64,000 bases of DNA from a virus (taxonomy: Duplodnaviria > Caudoviricetes): positions 41,266 to 105,265 of the IMG/VR virus record IMGVR_UViG_2558860250_000001. One strand, given 5' to 3'. Below are positions 6,256 through 41,530 of this stretch, piece after piece; the first letter of the stretch is position 1; each line of letters begins with the position of its first letter. Below the pieces are notes generated by a model. That model did no database searches. It was not told the DNA's origin and saw nothing but the letters and a program-made list of their open reading frames with translations. A program made the translations under genes and the position numbers.

Positions 6256-7005
6256 TGATTATTCATCCCCTTTGCGGTATAGGCTTCGGCATATGATAGG
6301 AAGATGTCATATGATCCATATATGCGTTCGCCAATTACATATACCAGTATGTCGTCGTCGGGAATATTGGCTACGCGGTCAATTATGACTTCGACAACTT
6401 CGCCAGAATCAATGGTATAAACTTTGTCACCAATTTCAAACATTATTCACGGCCTCCATATAATCTATTGAGGTAACATCAATTGATATATGTACCACGT
6501 TGGATTGTGCAATTCTTGATAAATATTGATTCCGTTGATTATCAACACCACAGCGCCAGCAAACGCAAATAACAATAACACGCCATGGTATACTTGGCGA
6601 CAATCGAATCAATGATGGAGATATTCATGTGATTACTCATTAGTCAATTCAGATTCCAGATATGCTATGGTGCTTTCGATATTATCCAAATTATCCATTG
6701 CCTGTTTCAAATCGCGACGCAATAGTTCAGCACGTGTACGATAAATCATTTCAGAGGTCACATAATATTCTCCATCATCAGTAGAAATCCCATATTCGTA
6801 ATATCTATTGAATTTATCAATCAGATTCTTTACGGTGACAGTTCCGTACAATTTAATTTCATAGTCGTCGTCCAAACGGAACACAAACCATACTGTTTCG
6901 CCTAATTGTGGTTTATACAAGTGGGCACCTCCTATGTGATACAATACCATAATTATACTGATAACCATCCGATCACAGTGAACGCAACAGCCACAGCCAA
7001 CCAAA

Positions 7006-28288: not shown

Positions 28289-29047
28289 ATGGCTGAAAAT
28301 ATCACAATGCACGCGGGTAAACTCTATCAGGAATCGGGACCGATTGATATGGGCAACTTGGTCGAACTTCGCCAAATGGTAATTGACTTGACACGTCGTG
28401 TAGAGGCATTGGAGAGTAAGCATCTATCAATTGAACAAATAAAAGCGTTATATGGAATGGGAAAAATTCCTTTGTTTGATAATGAAGCAGATGAACTGCG
28501 AGTTCGATCAGAGTTTGCGGCAACGCAGCAGCAGTACACGCGCGAACAGGTGATTGAAATGGCTAAACGTGATGTGGATGAGTTGATGATGACACAACAC
28601 TTACACTTTCTACGTGATGGTATCACTATCACTCTTTCATACGAAGATAAAATTGACTTTGTTGTTAATCGTGATAAACGTACTGTAGTAGCATTGATTA
28701 AGTCGTCAGGTAAAGTGTGGGCACGTGGAATTGCGAAATGTCAACCAGATGATTGTTTCAATGTACATATCGGTAAGGCGATTGCGTTATATCGCGCGTT
28801 GGGATTGATGGTGCTGAATATGTACTTGAACGCACCACAACCGACGGAAGCGCAGGTAGGAGATGTAATTAAGTGGCCAACTACATCAGCTACATACGTA
28901 GTGAAAACTAAATATGCAAGTTCCGCAAATATCGAATGTTTGTCTAGTGATAGATTTGTTTTTAGGGGCAAACGATACTACGGGCGTGATATCAGTGAAG
29001 CGGTTATCATTGACGACTCACACGATTTCGGTGGCGAGGTGATGTAA
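28289..29047 (+). CDS. Phage hypothetical protein
   Basis: ARGIAKCQPDDCFNVHIGKAIALYRAL motif common in Bacillus phage proteins; start refined from the RBS. Confidence 0.7.
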   Translation: MAENITMHAGKLYQESGPIDMGNLVELRQMVIDLTRRVEALESKHLSIEQIKALYGMGKIPLFDNEADELRVRSEFAATQQQYTREQVIEMAKRDVDELMMTQHLHFLRDGITITLSYEDKIDFVVNRDKRTVVALIKSSGKVWARGIAKCQPDDCFNVHIGKAIALYRALGLMVLNMYLNAPQPTEAQVGDVIKWPTTSATYVVKTKYASSANIECLSSDRFVFRGKRYYGRDISEAVIIDDSHDFGGEVM

Positions 29048-29048
29048 T

Positions 29049-29609
29049 GTGTGCAAAATATCATCGCATTCGGTAATGCGCGCGAAGCAACGTTGGAATT
29101 TAGAGAAGGCGCGACACCCCGAGTCAATCATTGCTGATACATTTGCTGCGTCGGAACTGATTGGCGATTTCATCGGTGACCGTGGTGAAATTTTGCAAAT
29201 TTTATTAGAGAAGCGCAAACAACGGGCGCTCGTATACGATCCTTTATCAGATACCGTGGTCACAGTCTACAGCACAAAGGGATCGCCACTGGCACCAACG
29301 CTATACGATTCGGTTATAACGTTACATAAGAAACAAATTGGCAAATTGGAACGTCGATATAAGTCTATATTCAAACGGTACAATTCTGAACGTGAAAAGT
29401 TGGATGACGAACGACGCCGCATTGACGAAGAGATACGTAGGTTAAAGATGGAGCGCGACCACATTACGGCTATATTGGACAACTATCAAATTGATTTGTC
29501 GCGCATCAACAGTGAGAAGAAGTCGATTATTAAGTCGATGGCACATTACATGTCCAGTCCTGGCAACATGGATATGGAAGTCGAGTCAACTATTGCGGAG
29601 GTGAACTAA
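29049..29609 (+). CDS. Hypothetical protein with a coiled coil
   Basis: SSHSVMRAKQR...VVTVY N-terminal domain followed by heptad repeats. Confidence 0.6.
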   Translation: MCKISSHSVMRAKQRWNLEKARHPESIIADTFAASELIGDFIGDRGEILQILLEKRKQRALVYDPLSDTVVTVYSTKGSPLAPTLYDSVITLHKKQIGKLERRYKSIFKRYNSEREKLDDERRRIDEEIRRLKMERDHITAILDNYQIDLSRINSEKKSIIKSMAHYMSSPGNMDMEVESTIAEVN

Positions 29610-30157
29610 TGCAAGGTCAAGATGTGCTGTTTTCGTCAGCAAGCATTGAATGGGGGACGCCGCAGCATATATTCGATGCGTTGGACGCGGAATTCCATTT
29701 CACATTGGACGCAGCCGCTAATGTACATAATCACAAGTGCGATAAGTGGTATGGTACGCAATCTGACGGGACATTTATTGATGGGTTGGCGCAGGATTGG
29801 AGTGGGGAAACAATATGGCTTAATCCACCTTATCAGCGCAATGTAATCGATAAATGGGCACACAAAGCATATACCAGCGCACGAGACAATGGCACGACGG
29901 TTGTATTGTTGTTGCCAGCCCGACTCGACGTGAAGTGGTGGAACAAATACTGTGTGTATGCCCCTGAAATTAGATTTGTCGAGGGCAGGATCAGGTTCGA
30001 ACAAGAGGGAAAGTATAACTCGGCGACGTTTCCATCTGCAATCGTGATATTTAGAGGTGGCGTAAGCGATGTGCCATATCAATGTGTGAAACTGTGGAAG
30101 CAACCTAAATATACATGCGTGACGCAATGGAAACAGCCGAAGGGGATGATGGTATGA
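29609..30157 (+). CDS. Phage N6-adenine DNA methyltransferase (Dam-like)
   Basis: EWGTP, FTLDAAA, DGLAQDW, WLNPPY, LLPAR, GRIRF, FPSAIVIF. Confidence 0.92.
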   Translation: MQGQDVLFSSASIEWGTPQHIFDALDAEFHFTLDAAANVHNHKCDKWYGTQSDGTFIDGLAQDWSGETIWLNPPYQRNVIDKWAHKAYTSARDNGTTVVLLLPARLDVKWWNKYCVYAPEIRFVEGRIRFEQEGKYNSATFPSAIVIFRGGVSDVPYQCVKLWKQPKYTCVTQWKQPKGMMV

Positions 30158-31008
30158 ACGAGTTAGCGTTGGTGGAAAGTCGCGATGTACGCGAGCGGTA
30201 CATGGAACGAGTTGATGTGTTGGACAAGGTTAAGGCGTTGACGATGTTACCGGATGATATGCATGTGGCGGCGAAAATGGTCGCGGATTACTACGAAGTG
30301 GACTACAACAACGTCATTAAGCCAGTAATCCACCGTCACCGTGAAGAACTTGATTCAGACGGCATGGTGGTACTACGTGGCGAGGAGTTAAAGAGATATA
30401 AAACAGAGTGGCAAAATGCCACCCTAACTGCAAGGTCGAATCTTACGCTTCTCCCTCGTCGAGCAGTCCTGAGAATCGGTATGTTGCTGCGTGATTCGGA
30501 AGTAGCCAAACAGGTTCGTACATATTTACTCAACGTTGAAGAGTTGGCGGCACCGGAACATAAGCAAGAAGCAGTGGATATGATGGAAGTGCCGAAGACG
30601 TTCCTTGAAGCACTAAAATTGGCGGTGTATTTAGAAGAAAAGCGCCAGGAACTATTGCTTGAGAATGGCGAGTTGAAAAATACAATATCTGAGATGCAGC
30701 CGAAAGTTGATGTATATGAGGATTTGGTTAGCGCAGAAAATTACATGACCATCGCTACAGTTGCTAAGTCGATGGGATGGGGACGAAATAAATTGTTCGC
30801 ACTTTTACGAGACAAGAATATTCTGCGACGAGATAACACTCCATATCAACGGTATATAGACAATGGATATTTTAGCATACGCATGGTGCCTAAACGCGTA
30901 GGTGATAAAATAGAAAACTTTCCACAGACAATTGTGAGTGCGAGAGGGCATGAGTTTATATACAACATCGTGTGTAAGCATAACGTATTTTATTTGAATA
31001 AGGAATAA
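30154..31008 (+). CDS. Phage antirepressor (KilA-C domain)
   Basis: RAVLRIGMLLRDSEVAKQVRTYLL; PKTFLEAL; GRNKLF..LR; PYQRYIDNGYF. Confidence 0.88.
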   Translation: MNELALVESRDVRERYMERVDVLDKVKALTMLPDDMHVAAKMVADYYEVDYNNVIKPVIHRHREELDSDGMVVLRGEELKRYKTEWQNATLTARSNLTLLPRRAVLRIGMLLRDSEVAKQVRTYLLNVEELAAPEHKQEAVDMMEVPKTFLEALKLAVYLEEKRQELLLENGELKNTISEMQPKVDVYEDLVSAENYMTIATVAKSMGWGRNKLFALLRDKNILRRDNTPYQRYIDNGYFSIRMVPKRVGDKIENFPQTIVSARGHEFIYNIVCKHNVFYLNKE

Positions 31009-31026
31009 AATTTACATTATAATATC

Positions 31027-31056
31027 TTGACATTCATATAGTATATATAATATAAT
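31027..31056 (+). promoter_or_regulatory. sigmaA promoter of the tracr/CRISPR/cas12f locus
   Basis: TTGACA (31027) -18bp- TATAAT (31051). Confidence 0.75.
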
Positions 31057-31088
31057 TAATATAGAAGGAGGGTGGAGAACAATAAATA

Positions 31089-31244
31089 GGGTGACTGGAC
31101 ACCCTTGAGCCGAGATTACAGTGGTGCGAATACATAGGTCAACGATAATATCAACGCACAATACACTCGGCAAGGTGAAATATCACCATCGTTTCGCGCG
31201 AAATGTGCGGAACCGACACATACAAATACATATGATACGGCAAC
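31089..31244 (+). ncRNA. Cas12f tracrRNA A
   Basis: Stems GGGTG/CACCC, GCCGAG/CTCGGC, GGTG/CACC and GTTTCGCGC/GTGCGGAAC; 31214-31244 is complementary to repeat A. Confidence 0.8.
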
Positions 31245-31245
31245 A

Positions 31246-31393
31246 GTTGCAACGTATAAATGTAGCATGTATGTGTTGCAGGTACGCACAATAATCAACG
31301 CTCCAACAGTCGGGATCGTTGTTGCAACGTATAAATGTAGTATGTATATGTTGCAGGTGAACGTATATATGCGACACACGTAATAAACACAAA
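31246..31393 (+). CRISPR. Mini-array A: two 37-nt repeats GTTGCAACGTATAAATGTAGYATGTATRTGTTGCAGG, one bounded spacer and one trailing spacer-length segment
   Basis: Repeats at 31246-31282 and 31321-31357 (2 mismatches); 38-nt spacer 31283-31320; 36-nt segment 31358-31393 before tracr B. Confidence 0.85.
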
Positions 31394-31549
31394 CGGTCAG
31401 CCGGGATGAGCCGAAGCCGAGAAGTGACGCTAGTACATAATGGTTGGTAAGTTAAATAAAGCGTCAACACTACAGGCAAGGTGCTATAGGCACCACCGTT
31501 CGCGCAAAATAGGCGTGAACCACTGTCATACATGTCACCGTAATTGTAC
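31394..31549 (+). ncRNA. Cas12f tracrRNA B
   Basis: Homologous to tracr A (AGCCGAGA, GGCAAGGTG, CACCA.CGTT.CGCGC); covarying stems TGACGCT/AGCGTCA, GGTGC/GCACC and GTTCGCGC/GCGTGAAC; 31521-31549 is complementary to repeat B. Confidence 0.8.
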
Positions 31550-31550
31550 A

Positions 31551-31721
31551 GTTGCAATGTATATGATGACTGTATGATTAGTGCGGAAACTCGTTCGATT
31601 CTTGTCGTCACTGCCACACACCTAGTTGCAATGTATATGATGACTGTATGATTAGTGCGGAAAAATAGACCTAGGAATTTTTTTCGTTTCCTTTGTTGTT
31701 GCAATGTATATGATGACTGTA
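31551..31721 (+). CRISPR. Mini-array B: repeat GTTGCAATGTATATGATGACTGTATGATTAGTGCGGAAA twice, plus a truncated third copy and two spacers
   Basis: Identical 39-nt repeats at 31551 and 31625; 24-nt partial copy at 31698; spacers 31590-31624 (35 nt) and 31664-31697 (34 nt). Confidence 0.9.
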
Positions 31722-31785
31722 GCGCGAACCATAAGTGATTGCAAAATGCCCACACTTTCGCGCCGAATAGGGAGAGTATAAATAA

Positions 31786-33129
31786 ATGATTGTTAAAACG
31801 ATGCCATATGAAATTATAAAGCCGTTGTCGTGTGATTGGGCTGTATTCGGGGAAATGCTTCGTAGACTAAGAGATGAGTCATTTAGAATAAAAAATTCTG
31901 CGATACAATATTTTTACGAAGATGATATTAAAAGACGGGAATTTAAAAAGAATAATGGTAGATTCCCTAAAAAAGGTGAATTCTATGGTTCTTCAGTATC
32001 CGTATATAATTATGTGCGCCCTGATGTAAAATATTCGGCGATGGGAAACGTTACCTTGATAAACCAATTAGTCAAAAGTGTATGGATTAAATATAAAGAT
32101 GATGTTGTAAAAAGAAATATGTCTATACCTAGTTACAGACCAAATAATCCGATTGAAATTAATGTTCAGTCCTTCAATTCGTTCGATTTTGGGCAAGCAT
32201 GTGTTAACTTGTTGTCAAGAAAGGGAGTTGAAGAACTCAAAAAGAAATTGTCGGAGGTAAAAAAGAAAAAGAATAAAACAGGTGGTGACGATAATCTAAA
32301 ATTTACGCAAGAACAATTGAATGGCATATCAACATCTGTCACATTTGCATTCAACCCTGGGAAAAACAATGCAAAACAAGTTTTAAATCGCATTATATCG
32401 GGCGAGTATAAATTATCATCGAGTAAAATCATATACAATGAGCGTAAAAATAAATGGATGTTGGCGGTCGCTTATAAATTTGAACCTAAAACAATCGAGT
32501 TAGACAAAAATCGCGTACTAGGCATTGATATGGGAGTTGTATATCCAGCTTATATGGCAGTGAACTACGATAAATACTGGAGAGATAGCATTGACGGGGG
32601 ACAGATAGAACAATATCGTAAAACTGTGGAGGCGCGCAGAAGAAGGCTGCAACGTCAAGCTGCTGTATGTGGCAATGGGCGTATTGGACATGGACGCAAG
32701 AAGCGAATGCAACCATTGGAGAAAATAAGCGATAAGGTGGCAAATTTCCGCAACACCGTAAATCATACATATGCGAAAAAGATTGTACAGAATGCCGTTA
32801 AATTGGGATGCGGTACGATACAAATGGAGGAACTGTCTGGTATAAATGAAAAAGAGACATTTCTAAAGAGGTGGACATATTTCGATCTGCAAAAGAAAAT
32901 TGAGTATCGTGCAAAGGAATATGGCATAGATGTTATAAAAATAAATCCCAAATATACATCACAACGTTGCAGTGAGTGTGGATACATAGATGAGCGAAAT
33001 AGACCAAAGGTACCCGACCAATCGAAATTCAAGTGTTTGTCGTGCGGATACGAAACGAACGCCGACTTCAATGCGGCGCGTAACATAGCGACACCATATA
33101 TTGATAAGATTATATCATTGAACAGTTGA
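31786..33129 (+). CDS. cas12f: Type V-F miniature CRISPR effector (AsCas12f1-like, 447 aa)
   Basis: RuvC-I LGIDMG, RuvC-II IQMEEL, RuvC-III NADFNAARNIA, zinc finger CSECG/CLSCG. YEIIKPL..DW..FG..LR, MSIPSY and GHGR.KR match AsCas12f1 as recalled. CRISPR and tracr are adjacent. Confidence 0.9.
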   Translation: MIVKTMPYEIIKPLSCDWAVFGEMLRRLRDESFRIKNSAIQYFYEDDIKRREFKKNNGRFPKKGEFYGSSVSVYNYVRPDVKYSAMGNVTLINQLVKSVWIKYKDDVVKRNMSIPSYRPNNPIEINVQSFNSFDFGQACVNLLSRKGVEELKKKLSEVKKKKNKTGGDDNLKFTQEQLNGISTSVTFAFNPGKNNAKQVLNRIISGEYKLSSSKIIYNERKNKWMLAVAYKFEPKTIELDKNRVLGIDMGVVYPAYMAVNYDKYWRDSIDGGQIEQYRKTVEARRRRLQRQAAVCGNGRIGHGRKKRMQPLEKISDKVANFRNTVNHTYAKKIVQNAVKLGCGTIQMEELSGINEKETFLKRWTYFDLQKKIEYRAKEYGIDVIKINPKYTSQRCSECGYIDERNRPKVPDQSKFKCLSCGYETNADFNAARNIATPYIDKIISLNS

Positions 33130-33313
33130 TTTTATATAATATAATTGATATAATTAAATTATAGGGAAGTGATACATATGGAACGCGATGCGCTACTTCG
33201 CATATTAGGCGATTTGCTGTTTGCGCTAGATGATGCTGACACGAGGTATGTTGGCTACATCAACTCACTAATTGTCGAAACGAAGAAAGCAATTTATTTG
33301 ATGGACACGGAGA

Positions 33314-34507
33314 GTGGTGCGATTGAGTCTGGAACGCAAACCGGATGAATCGGTGTTTGAGTACAAACTGCGCATATGTCGCGAGTTAGACGGAGTGAAA
33401 ACGTGGCAGGAGATAGCCGATATTGTCAACGATGAATTGGGTACGGAGTTTGGAGAGTCAGCCATACGCAAATGGTACGTGCCGATTAGACAGTACATGG
33501 ATTATCAACGTGACCATGGCAGCACAGACAATGAGTTGTTGCAACAGATTAAGGATGAACAGTTGCGACTGGAAAAGTTAAAAGTACAGGTGGCGGATGA
33601 ACGTCGTGCATATAAGGCAATAGTTCGTGAGTCGGCCAGGTTTGATAATATCATCGACAAGTTGAAATCGTCATTTGATGAGTTGGCGACACTTAAGCCG
33701 TTGGAGTGGTCGAAGCCACAAACGTACATATCGAATACAGATGGCGTGGTGCTATGGTCGGATTGGCACTACGGAGCATTCGCGGACAACTATTTCAACC
33801 AGTTTAACAATGATGTATTCAAGCGACGGTTGGATAAGTTGATATCTAAGACGATACAGTATGGCACGTTTAATGGGATCGAGACGCTACATGTGATGAA
33901 CCTCGGTGACAGTATAAGCGGCCACATTCACGTATCAACACGTATTCAGTCAACGGAAAACGTGATTAGTCAGACACAGCATGTGAGCGAGTACATAAGT
34001 GAAGCGTTAGTTGAGTTATGTAGACACTTTGGCAATGTAAAATATTATCATGTTCGTGGAAATCATGACAGAGTTAACCATTTATCTAAGGATACCAACA
34101 TTAGCGCAGAGTCATTTTCGGATTTGATTCCGTGGTATGTGTCGGCACGTACAGGACATGTACGCAACTTGGAAATCATGGAGAACCCATACGATGATGA
34201 GATTGCAGTTGCTGATGTACAGGGTCATATTTGTTTAGGAATCCACGGGCACAAAGATAAGTTGAACAATGTGGCGGCTGATTTAACGTTGATGTTAGGT
34301 GTGAAACCAGCGTCGATATTCTTAGGACATTACCATCACAGCGCTGAACGTGAATCAACTGGCGGAATTGATGTAATACAAAATCCATCGTACATAGGAA
34401 CCGACGAATACTCGCGCAACATACGCAAGACAAGTAAACCGGCACAAAAGATGCTGATATACTCACGCGATGAAGGCAGGATTTGCACATATAACATCGG
34501 GCTGTAA
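33314..34507 (+). CDS. Calcineurin-like metallophosphoesterase with N-terminal HTH/coiled coil
   Basis: SDWHYG, LGD, GNHDR, HGH, GHYHH. Confidence 0.85.
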   Translation: MVRLSLERKPDESVFEYKLRICRELDGVKTWQEIADIVNDELGTEFGESAIRKWYVPIRQYMDYQRDHGSTDNELLQQIKDEQLRLEKLKVQVADERRAYKAIVRESARFDNIIDKLKSSFDELATLKPLEWSKPQTYISNTDGVVLWSDWHYGAFADNYFNQFNNDVFKRRLDKLISKTIQYGTFNGIETLHVMNLGDSISGHIHVSTRIQSTENVISQTQHVSEYISEALVELCRHFGNVKYYHVRGNHDRVNHLSKDTNISAESFSDLIPWYVSARTGHVRNLEIMENPYDDEIAVADVQGHICLGIHGHKDKLNNVAADLTLMLGVKPASIFLGHYHHSAERESTGGIDVIQNPSYIGTDEYSRNIRKTSKPAQKMLIYSRDEGRICTYNIGL

Positions 34508-34544
34508 AGTAGGTGATCTCCGTTGTTATTAGACACTCATATAA

Positions 34545-34860
34545 GCGTAAAATGGAACAGTTCTACTCGCTCGTGGTATCAAAGCAAAGGCTATACATTC
34601 ACTAATTATGGAGAAGAATATCGCCGATTTAACTCCTAGCAGCAATCAAAGGATTAAGTTAGTATGTGATTATTGCGGGAAACAATACGACAAAAAATAC
34701 TGCGATTACACCAAACAAAAACAAGTGTGTATTGTTGAATCTGATTCGTGTGTTAAAGAAACTATTAATAAAAAGTACGGATGCGACAATGTGTTTCAAC
34801 TTGATCGTCGAAATACCGAGATATAAGGAAAATAAAACGAGAAGACATCATTTGAGGTGA
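34545..34860 (+). pseudogene. Fragmented zinc-ribbon homing-endonuclease-like remnant
   Basis: Pieces WYQSKGYTFT, CDYCGK and KKYGCDNVFQ lie in different frames. Confidence 0.45.
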
Positions 34861-35014
34861 AGACGTGTTTCAACGACAGTATTCAATGGTTGTACTGTTC
34901 GGGCTGGTGATTGACACAACGATACATAATTGGTGGCTGCAATTGTTAGTTTTTATCGCAATTATATTGGCAGATGAAATAGGGTATCGATTAACGCGGA
35001 GGAGATAACATGTC

Positions 35015-41131: not shown

Positions 41132-41530
41132 ATGCCACAGTACGATTGGGAGACAATGACTTTTGAAGAAAAACACCACCTTCTAGCGGAAAAAGTGATG
41201 GAGTGGACAGTTGGAGAGCACCCTGAATTGCATGGAACTGGACAGATGATGGTGGAGTATGAGGAGCCTGTGTACTTCCGACAGGATGGAACATTCCTCT
41301 GCGAATGTGAATGGTATCCGACGGAAGACATATCCGCAGCGTGGGAAGTGGTGGAGAAGATGAAACAGGACGGATGGTTGCCAAGTATTGAATACTTCGA
41401 AAAGGCGATTAGAAAAGGGTACGAAGTTACGATGGGCCACATGTCAGAGGACGCTCAATGGGCTATATCTGAAACGGCACCCGAAGCCATTTGTCTCGCT
41501 GCCCTGCGTGCAAAAGGAGTAGATGTGTGA
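41132..41530 (+). CDS. Phage ABA-sandwich (BC1872-like) protein
   Basis: PTEDISAAWEVVEKM...TAPEAICLAAL. Confidence 0.8.
   Translation: MPQYDWETMTFEEKHHLLAEKVMEWTVGEHPELHGTGQMMVEYEEPVYFRQDGTFLCECEWYPTEDISAAWEVVEKMKQDGWLPSIEYFEKAIRKGYEVTMGHMSEDAQWAISETAPEAICLAALRAKGVDV

Follow-up and report, generated by a model that had tools for sequence, protein, structure and literature searches.

Type V-F1 CRISPR-Cas12f1 systems cleave double-stranded DNA in a PAM-dependent manner by means of a dimer of the effector that is bound to one guide. AsCas12f1 produced in E. coli was found to carry two separate RNA species, a 169-nt tracrRNA and crRNAs of 40-50 nt (PMC8548392). Engineered Cas12f sgRNAs, in which the 3' end of the tracr is connected through a tetraloop to the 5' end of the crRNA, are active (PMC8548392, PMC10090079), and in the pipelines that led to OsCas12f1 and RhCas12f1 the anti-repeat was sought between the gene and the array before tracr and crRNA were joined with GAAA (PMC10090079). 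At the evolutionary level, Altae-Tran 2023 proposes that half of a direct repeat was fused with the tracrRNA and that the resulting unit was then duplicated into omegaRNA arrays (PMC10691335), and Hoffmann 2025 reports the single chimeric gRNAs of dCas12f-sigmaE (PMC12259090). We found no remark in the OsCas12f1/RhCas12f1 and dCas12f papers (PMC10090079, PMC10691335, PMC12259090) that nature already joins tracr and crRNA. Nor did the literature searched contain an explicit statement that the Cas12f anti-repeat abuts the first repeat, which is not proof of novelty. A natural molecule containing both tracr and guide is reportedly made in the Cas9 system of Streptococcus pyogenes; this tracr-L (Workman 2021) is said to be a type II, long tracr isoform that autoregulates cas expression, rather than a tracr joined to the first repeat of an array.

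The locus considered here lies in a window of 64,000 nucleotides (the whole stretch of DNA that was analysed, positions 41,266 to 105,265 of the IMG/VR virus record IMGVR_UViG_2558860250_000001). By its predicted protein, its arrays and its tracr, it is a prophage-borne type V-F1 CRISPR-Cas12f1 locus: there is a small TnpB-like effector with a D-E-D triad and a zinc ribbon, two adjacent mini-arrays (2 and 2+1 repeats) directly upstream of its gene and a long tracr with an anti-repeat. The cassette interval extends from an Ant-like gene (30115-31008, up to its stop codon) to a 447-aa ORF (31786-33129), and both modules lie between them on the + strand, as follows.

31027-31056, + strand: promoter-like site TTGACA-18-TATAAT, a 12/12 sigma-70 match
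31087-31211, + strand: tracrRNA-like scaffold 1 (fold z -4.45; paralogous to scaffold 2), made up of stem 1, a CCGAG...CUCGG AAGGU stem and two more stem-loops
31212-31244, + strand: anti-repeat 1, which pairs with repeat 1a in the folds
31245, + strand: single A between anti-repeat 1 and repeat 1a, within a predicted 3-nt apical loop, CAG
31246-31282, + strand: repeat 1a, 37 nt, beginning GTTGCAAC...
31283-31320, + strand: spacer 1a, 38 nt; target search negative
31321-31357, + strand: repeat 1b, with two substitutions relative to 1a
31358-31393, + strand: trailing sequence 3' of repeat 1b, with no further repeat behind it; it may be a second spacer or may connect to module 2
31394-31519, + strand: tracrRNA-like scaffold 2, from its fold and its paralogy to scaffold 1
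31520-31549, + strand: anti-repeat 2, from the folds
31550, + strand: single A between anti-repeat 2 and repeat 2a, within a predicted 4-nt loop, CAGU
31551-31587, + strand: repeat 2a, 37 nt, beginning GTTGCAAT...
31588-31624, + strand: spacer 2a, 37 nt, with a 37/37 match to C2:20796-20832 and a TTTC 5' flank
31625-31661, + strand: repeat 2b, identical to 2a
31662-31697, + strand: spacer 2b, 36 nt; target search negative
31698-31721, + strand: terminal repeat 2c, the first 24 nt alone, the spacer-proximal 3' part being missing
31722-31785, + strand: 5' UTR of cas12f; an inverted repeat, GCGCGAA...TTTCGCGC, immediately precedes the RBS
31786-33129, + strand: cas12f1 gene, 447 aa, AsCas12f clade, with the RuvC residues and the zinc-ribbon cysteines present

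Each module is composed of a structured scaffold of ~125-160 nt followed by an anti-repeat, one A and the direct repeats, and the two modules are paralogous (68% column identity). There are two repeat copies of 37-38 nt, 75 nt apart, in module 1 and two identical full copies 74 nt apart in module 2; the terminal repeat 2c is without its spacer-proximal half and hence a stray crRNA cannot form from it. A profile made from 11 related modules matches both 31087-31282 (E 1.6e-21) and 31395-31586 (E 2.3e-19). An Rfam scan of 30000-34000 with E up to 1 matched no family, and a megablast of 29000-35000 against phage records matched nothing. The inverted repeat in the cas12f 5' UTR may be a processing or stability element of the mRNA. 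The motif CGAACCAYAAGTGAT from 31698-31785 is common to the window and to a related locus, L003 (793-807), in which the start of the UTR is also conserved.

The solved structures nearest to the protein are those of AsCas12f (8J3R, 8J12 and 7WJU; E ~1e-105), followed by other Cas12f1 proteins, with TnpB at just ~1e-6. The Pfam matches are Cas12f1-like_TNB (PF07282) and OrfB_IS605 (PF01385); among the NCBIfam models, the guided_TnpB subfamily model exceeds its own cutoff and Cas12f2 does not reach its cutoff, in line with the assignment to f1. The protein is ~43% identical to AsCas12f1, full length and with an intact catalytic site, and in an alignment of 28 sequences D248, E348 and D427, together with C395, C398, C417 and C420 of the CxxC...CxxC motif, are invariant columns; judged from its sequence, the nuclease is predicted to be active. 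The cas12f1 gene is single-copy in a 4.35-Mb, two-contig genome (99.5% complete) and no second copy of the scaffold was found in that genome; a mobile IS element is therefore not indicated. Around the locus are phage genes (those of the anti-repressor Ant, Dam, an exonuclease, PhoH, a DNA methyltransferase and ribonucleotide reductase), cas1, cas2 and cas4 are absent at the locus, and many Cas12f homologues are on viral contigs. Two other assignments were rejected: a TnpB/omegaRNA transposon of the IS200/IS605 type, by the single-copy gene, the position of the RNA upstream of it and the phage neighbours, and a dCas12f-sigmaE system, by the intact catalytic residues, the full-length protein and the neighbouring Ant, Dam and exonuclease genes.

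Three lines, the promoter, the homology of the scaffolds and the flank of the protospacer, point to transcription of the arrays on the + strand. Neither between the site at 31027-31056 and the ORF nor between the modules is there a comparable + strand promoter; this sigma-70 site is likely to be the promoter of the whole guide-RNA/cas12f unit and, since no other intervenes, one precursor for everything would be the simplest reading. Both scaffolds share homology with the tracr region of the AsCas12f locus, in the same orientation relative to the repeats. The protospacer has a T-rich 5' flank (TTTC) when the array is read on the + strand, whereas the other strand gives GCAT; TTTC agrees with the published PAMs of Cas12f1 enzymes of V-U3 (the former name of V-F1), which are 5' and T-rich or C-rich (PMC7229846).

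In three studies, RNA-seq contigs extend over the tracr/repeat junctions without a break; these are assembled contigs, which carry neither strand nor ends and do not prove a single molecule. A contig from run X5 (31096-31379) has a depth of 42.6 versus 4.7-6 for the pieces of the ORF, and one from X7 (31138-31525) bridges module 1 into scaffold 2. The longest, from X1, covers the locus as a single contig (30987-33016) in which the 74-nt repeat unit is collapsed, an assembly effect of the 40-nt identical repeats. No run has any depth over the Ant gene region at 30800-30973, and this speaks for expression in the lysogen and against contaminating DNA. The start of the X1 contig, at 30987, is ~40 nt upstream of the predicted -35 and inside the end of the Ant ORF; as this contig begins upstream of the predicted promoter, the start site is unsettled.

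The first-pass annotation of this DNA had proposed that a single A separates the anti-repeat from the first repeat in both modules, and the coordinates are exact (31244/31245/31246 and 31549/31550/31551). The anti-repeat:first-repeat hairpin that it expected appears in the folds of the whole modules as well as in those of the junctions alone. Both predicted hairpins are long and imperfect, with energies of -23.9 kcal/mol for 31208-31284 (z -3.15; equalled by 1 of 200 shuffles) and -23.2 kcal/mol for 31514-31589 (z -2.67; 2 of 200). A 1-nt loop being physically impossible, the single A is not a loop by itself; the predicted apical loops, CAG (31244-31246) and CAGU (31549-31552), are formed by the 3'-terminal base of the anti-repeat, the A and one or two bases from the 5' end of the repeat.

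The two anti-repeats pair better with their own repeats, with duplex energies of -29.4 and -24.7 kcal/mol versus -20.1 and -18.6 kcal/mol for the repeat of the other module, and the middle helix differs between the modules on both strands (UACAU/AUGUA versus GUCA/UGAC). Such differences on both strands, together with the preference for the own repeat, indicate that the pairing has been kept by compensatory change and is under selection. This preference is claimed for the two modules of the window alone: in a matrix of own-versus-other duplexes from 33 loci the diagonal was not first in most rows, because related repeats share motifs. An RNAalifold covariation count (three hairpins) was set aside, MAFFT having misaligned the anti-repeat arm. 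Covariation proves pairing, but it cannot separate pairing in cis from pairing in trans. In repeat 1b a G has become A, with the loss of a C-G pair with anti-repeat 1, and the repeat forms a 12-bp hairpin with itself; the first repeat, 1a, is therefore the better partner of anti-repeat 1.

The occurrence of this abutting layout was surveyed in 160 related loci, where arrays stand beside most of the full-length homologues, and 60 arrays were scored by folding each first repeat with the 60 nt that precede it. An array was called abutting if it had >=14 cross pairs, an anti-repeat 3' end <=6 nt from the repeat and <=10 unpaired bases at the 5' end of the repeat; this junction-fold criterion and the profile replaced a global RNAduplex scan of 330 nt upstream, which was too noisy to place the anti-repeats. 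Abutting arrays numbered 23 of 60, versus 108 of 1200 (9%) for mononucleotide-shuffled upstream sequences, and several further arrays showed pairing with the 3' half of the repeat only. The trait is spread over a large Clostridia-type clade, a viral clade (L093-L098) and the clade formed by the window and L003. The Clostridia-type clade includes a locus from an Oscillibacter MAG as well as arrays of 11-18 repeats, and the abutting loci with arrays of this length are L012, L021, L028 and L032. L003 encodes a protein 61% identical to that of the window and shares with it the two modules, the A-GTTGCAAT junction and the truncated terminal repeat before the gene.

In the abutting loci the scaffold profile matches from end to end, repeat included, whereas in another group it ends ~90-155 nt before the first repeat; this split group includes the native AsCas12f locus. 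The split arrangement is represented by this AsCas12f-type locus, recovered as L172 (1203-1500, minus strand), with a 422-aa ORF and at least 18 repeats, whose protein is 99% identical to a Sulfoacidibacillus protein with a name that matches the PDB entry. Its anti-repeat is ~135 nt upstream of repeat 1, with structured sequence and a T-run between them, in keeping with the separate tracrRNA and crRNAs recovered from AsCas12f1 RNPs (PMC8548392). As the AsCas12f locus has this ~135-nt gap and separate RNAs, adjacency is not required for function. A tracr that abuts its array is a common native architecture in several Cas12f1 clades, and it is a trait of the family and not specific to this locus. 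It has been little noticed; what is less ordinary here are the tandem co-evolved modules ahead of a nuclease gene predicted to be active and a perfect match to a co-resident replicon.

The profile detects two modules per gene in the window, L003, L005/L007, L088 and L099/L131. In L005 (Alicyclobacillus macrosporangiidus) a unit at 6298-6490 begins right after the cas12f stop codon and comprises a scaffold, an anti-repeat, one repeat and ~50 nt before the next gene, without a second repeat; from this layout it is predicted to be a natural single guide, placed where an omegaRNA would be. The same gene is preceded by a three-repeat module with spacers of only ~20-25 nt. In L099 (5364-5640) a second guide cassette is found 1.6 kb downstream of cas12f and is followed by a mini-unit. 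The last scaffold stem of this mini-unit runs into a 5-bp remnant of the repeat:anti-repeat hairpin, and it looks like a naturally truncated sgRNA. The tracr-plus-repeat module thus appears to behave as a unit that duplicates and diverges. The single-repeat units, the duplicated modules and the mismatch in repeat 1b make the cis reading credible; the form of the loaded RNA is not thereby decided.

Spacer 2a is the only spacer for which the databases and the genome searched yielded a target. Read with its ambiguous flanking bases as 31588-31624, it matches 37/37 nucleotides at C2:20796-20832 (L167:8797-8833) of the same genome. C2 is the second contig or replicon, with a length of 124.7 kb and a G+C content of 46.6% versus 52.3% for the chromosome. 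The protospacer is inside a DUF6744 gene that is adjoined by genes for a DnaN-like clamp, MoxR and a VWA protein. The target gene has a depth of 129-348 in the same RNA-seq runs as the prophage locus, and guide and target therefore coexist in three studies; because of this coexistence, interference activity in the lysogen is unproven. Such a self-match might be tolerated because the PAM is non-permissive, because activity in the lysogen is low, because an inhibitor is present or because the role is a regulatory one. The same site, with one C-to-T mismatch, occurs in a second species of the genus (G014:C220). RNA-seq run X13, which bears the same species label and comes from a strain without the prophage, contains the target gene with C-to-T and the flank TTCC rather than TTTC; the C-to-T position corresponds to 31601 of the window, inside the protospacer. 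Comparison of spacers 1a and 2a with phage records gave chance-level matches only, the exact 20-22-nt cores of spacers 1a, 2a and 2b are absent from IMG/VR, spacer 1a is absent from the other 15 genomes of the genus, and the C2 target region had no match in a plasmid collection.

Taken as a whole, we consider it probable that this prophage V-F1 locus produces a single + strand precursor in which junction hairpins, formed in cis, give the first guides the topology of an sgRNA. Most likely, the one sigma-70 promoter (31027-31056) drives this precursor, which would contain scaffold 1, anti-repeat 1, a repeat, a spacer and a repeat, and then, for module 2, scaffold 2, anti-repeat 2, a repeat, a spacer, a repeat, a spacer and the truncated repeat, before it continues into the cas12f mRNA. 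With each anti-repeat placed against the first repeat, the precursor would fold in cis into the repeat:anti-repeat hairpin and the first spacer of each module would acquire a guide with the topology of an engineered sgRNA; later repeats would borrow the tracr in trans. Host RNases would shorten the spacer at its 3' end, and might also cut the hairpin open into a tracr and a crRNA that remain annealed; the start site, these processing steps and the loaded form of the RNA are what we infer. The first-pass proposal that tracr, repeat 1 and spacer 1 fold in cis in the manner of an sgRNA is plausible, most likely for a precursor: the topology, the folds, the junction-crossing contigs and the single-unit relatives speak for it, and they do not extend to the loaded form. 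AsCas12f1, with its split locus, binds separate RNAs, and the fused form here may therefore be a precursor only.

A more tentative possibility, distinctly less probable than such a precursor, is that each module is a natural single-guide gene and that Cas12f loads the uncut tracr-repeat-spacer RNA, as TnpB does its omegaRNA. The downstream repeat would then only mark the 3' boundary, new guides would arise per module and not per repeat, and the locus would connect omegaRNA and CRISPR as a surviving link, whichever way the change went. The relatives offer this idea single-repeat units with no array (L005:6298-6490), the collapsed 5-bp repeat:anti-repeat hairpin of the second unit of L099 and whole-unit duplication in the window, L003, L005, L088 and L099; in the window itself, anti-repeat 1 pairs worse with repeat 1b than with 1a and the sole spacer with a target is a first spacer. 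Engineered sgRNAs of like topology work (PMC8548392), and the fusion of tracr and half-repeat into omegaRNA arrays has been published for the Cas12f-derived dCas12f clade (PMC10691335, PMC12259090). However, adjacency also occurs beside the 11-18-repeat arrays of L012, L021, L028 and L032, where most guides must depend on a trans-acting tracr; module 2 contains two full repeats of identical sequence, and the mature RNAs of AsCas12f are separate species (PMC8548392). The suggestion in the first-pass annotation that the locus is an intermediate between an omegaRNA and the split tracr/crRNA is unproven, the layout being common to many Cas12f1 loci, including those with 11-18 repeats, and a similar scenario has already been published for the transition from Cas12f to dCas12f (PMC10691335). 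Stated most boldly, and as tentatively, the module would be a working guide gene loaded uncut by an active Cas12f1, guides would arise by duplication and divergence of modules in which tracr and repeat co-evolve, the phage clade would stand between omegaRNA and CRISPR, and a first-position guide would be aimed at the co-resident 125-kb replicon.

It is unlikely that the adjacency is without function, that is, a leftover of the origin of the tracrRNA as an inverted copy of the first repeat, or a result of the compaction of phage genomes, with the tracr acting strictly in trans. The AsCas12f subclade does work with a gap of ~130-155 nt, pairing in trans predicts covariation equally well, and many abutting loci are on viral contigs with tight intergenic space; but adjacency of 0-6 nt recurs in several deep clades, cellular genomes included, it leaves no room for a separate array promoter, so that co-transcription and proximity in cis are unavoidable, and single-repeat units exist. 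Protein coding on the minus strand, where open frames exist (31183-31755, 190 aa; 31116-31379, 87 aa), was considered and rejected, and that the region encodes such a protein or is a decayed, non-functional array is highly improbable. These frames cross direct repeats and the pair of paralogous structured scaffolds, dozens of cas12f-linked loci are hit by the scaffold profile, cas12f is intact, one spacer has a perfect target match and the RNA-seq contigs cover the region and not the neighbouring gene.

Should the fused precursor that we favor prove functional, the sgRNA design would already be natural for the miniature Cas12f nucleases, and matched tandem pairs of tracr and repeat would allow one small effector to serve several guide cassettes without adaptation genes. 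It would also bear on the transition from omegaRNA to tracr/crRNA that is debated for TnpB and Cas12, and could yield compact, naturally optimised designs for multiplex guides. The perfect match to a co-resident replicon supplies a concrete natural target with which to ask if prophage Cas12f systems act against other mobile elements or control them; one first-position guide directed against a co-resident 125-kb replicon would, if true, mean conflict or control between mobile elements. As the trait is widespread, its interest is at the level of the family and not at that of the locus.

Among the described systems, the AsCas12f1 clade (Acidibacillus/Sulfoacidibacillus; 8J12, 8J3R, 7WJU; PMC7229846, PMC8548392) resembles this locus in its domains and catalytic residues, in a long tracr scaffold that ends in an anti-repeat, in repeats of ~37 nt with the spacer 3' of the repeat, in a T-rich 5' protospacer flank and in having no cas1/cas2/cas4. 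Unlike AsCas12f1, the locus has its tracr and arrays upstream of the gene, two tandem modules whose distinct repeats have matching anti-repeats, one or two spacers of 36-38 nt per module and a prophage location; its anti-repeat abuts repeat 1, whereas the native L172 has a ~135-nt gap and at least 18 repeats. The engineered Cas12f sgRNAs with their GAAA loop (PMC8548392, PMC10090079, PMC8763643) have an identical topology of anti-repeat, short loop, repeat and 3' spacer, but the predicted natural guide keeps the full 37-nt repeat in its hairpin and its transcript would run on into repeats, a second module and an mRNA. The gRNAs of dCas12f-sigmaE (PMC10691335, PMC12259090) are likewise tandem scaffold-plus-guide units derived from a Cas12f1 tracr and repeat; here, in contrast, an active nuclease is predicted, the locus still has full repeats and mini-arrays, the scaffolds are ~160 nt versus 85-105 nt, and the genes examined next to cas12f include no rpoE or HTH partner. 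The omegaRNA of TnpB (IS200/IS605; PMC8612924) is similarly a single RNA with a structured scaffold and a 3' guide that serves a related nuclease, but the present locus has a single-copy gene, repeats, no identified transposon ends or tnpA, and an RNA that is encoded upstream of the gene and does not overlap the gene's 3' end.
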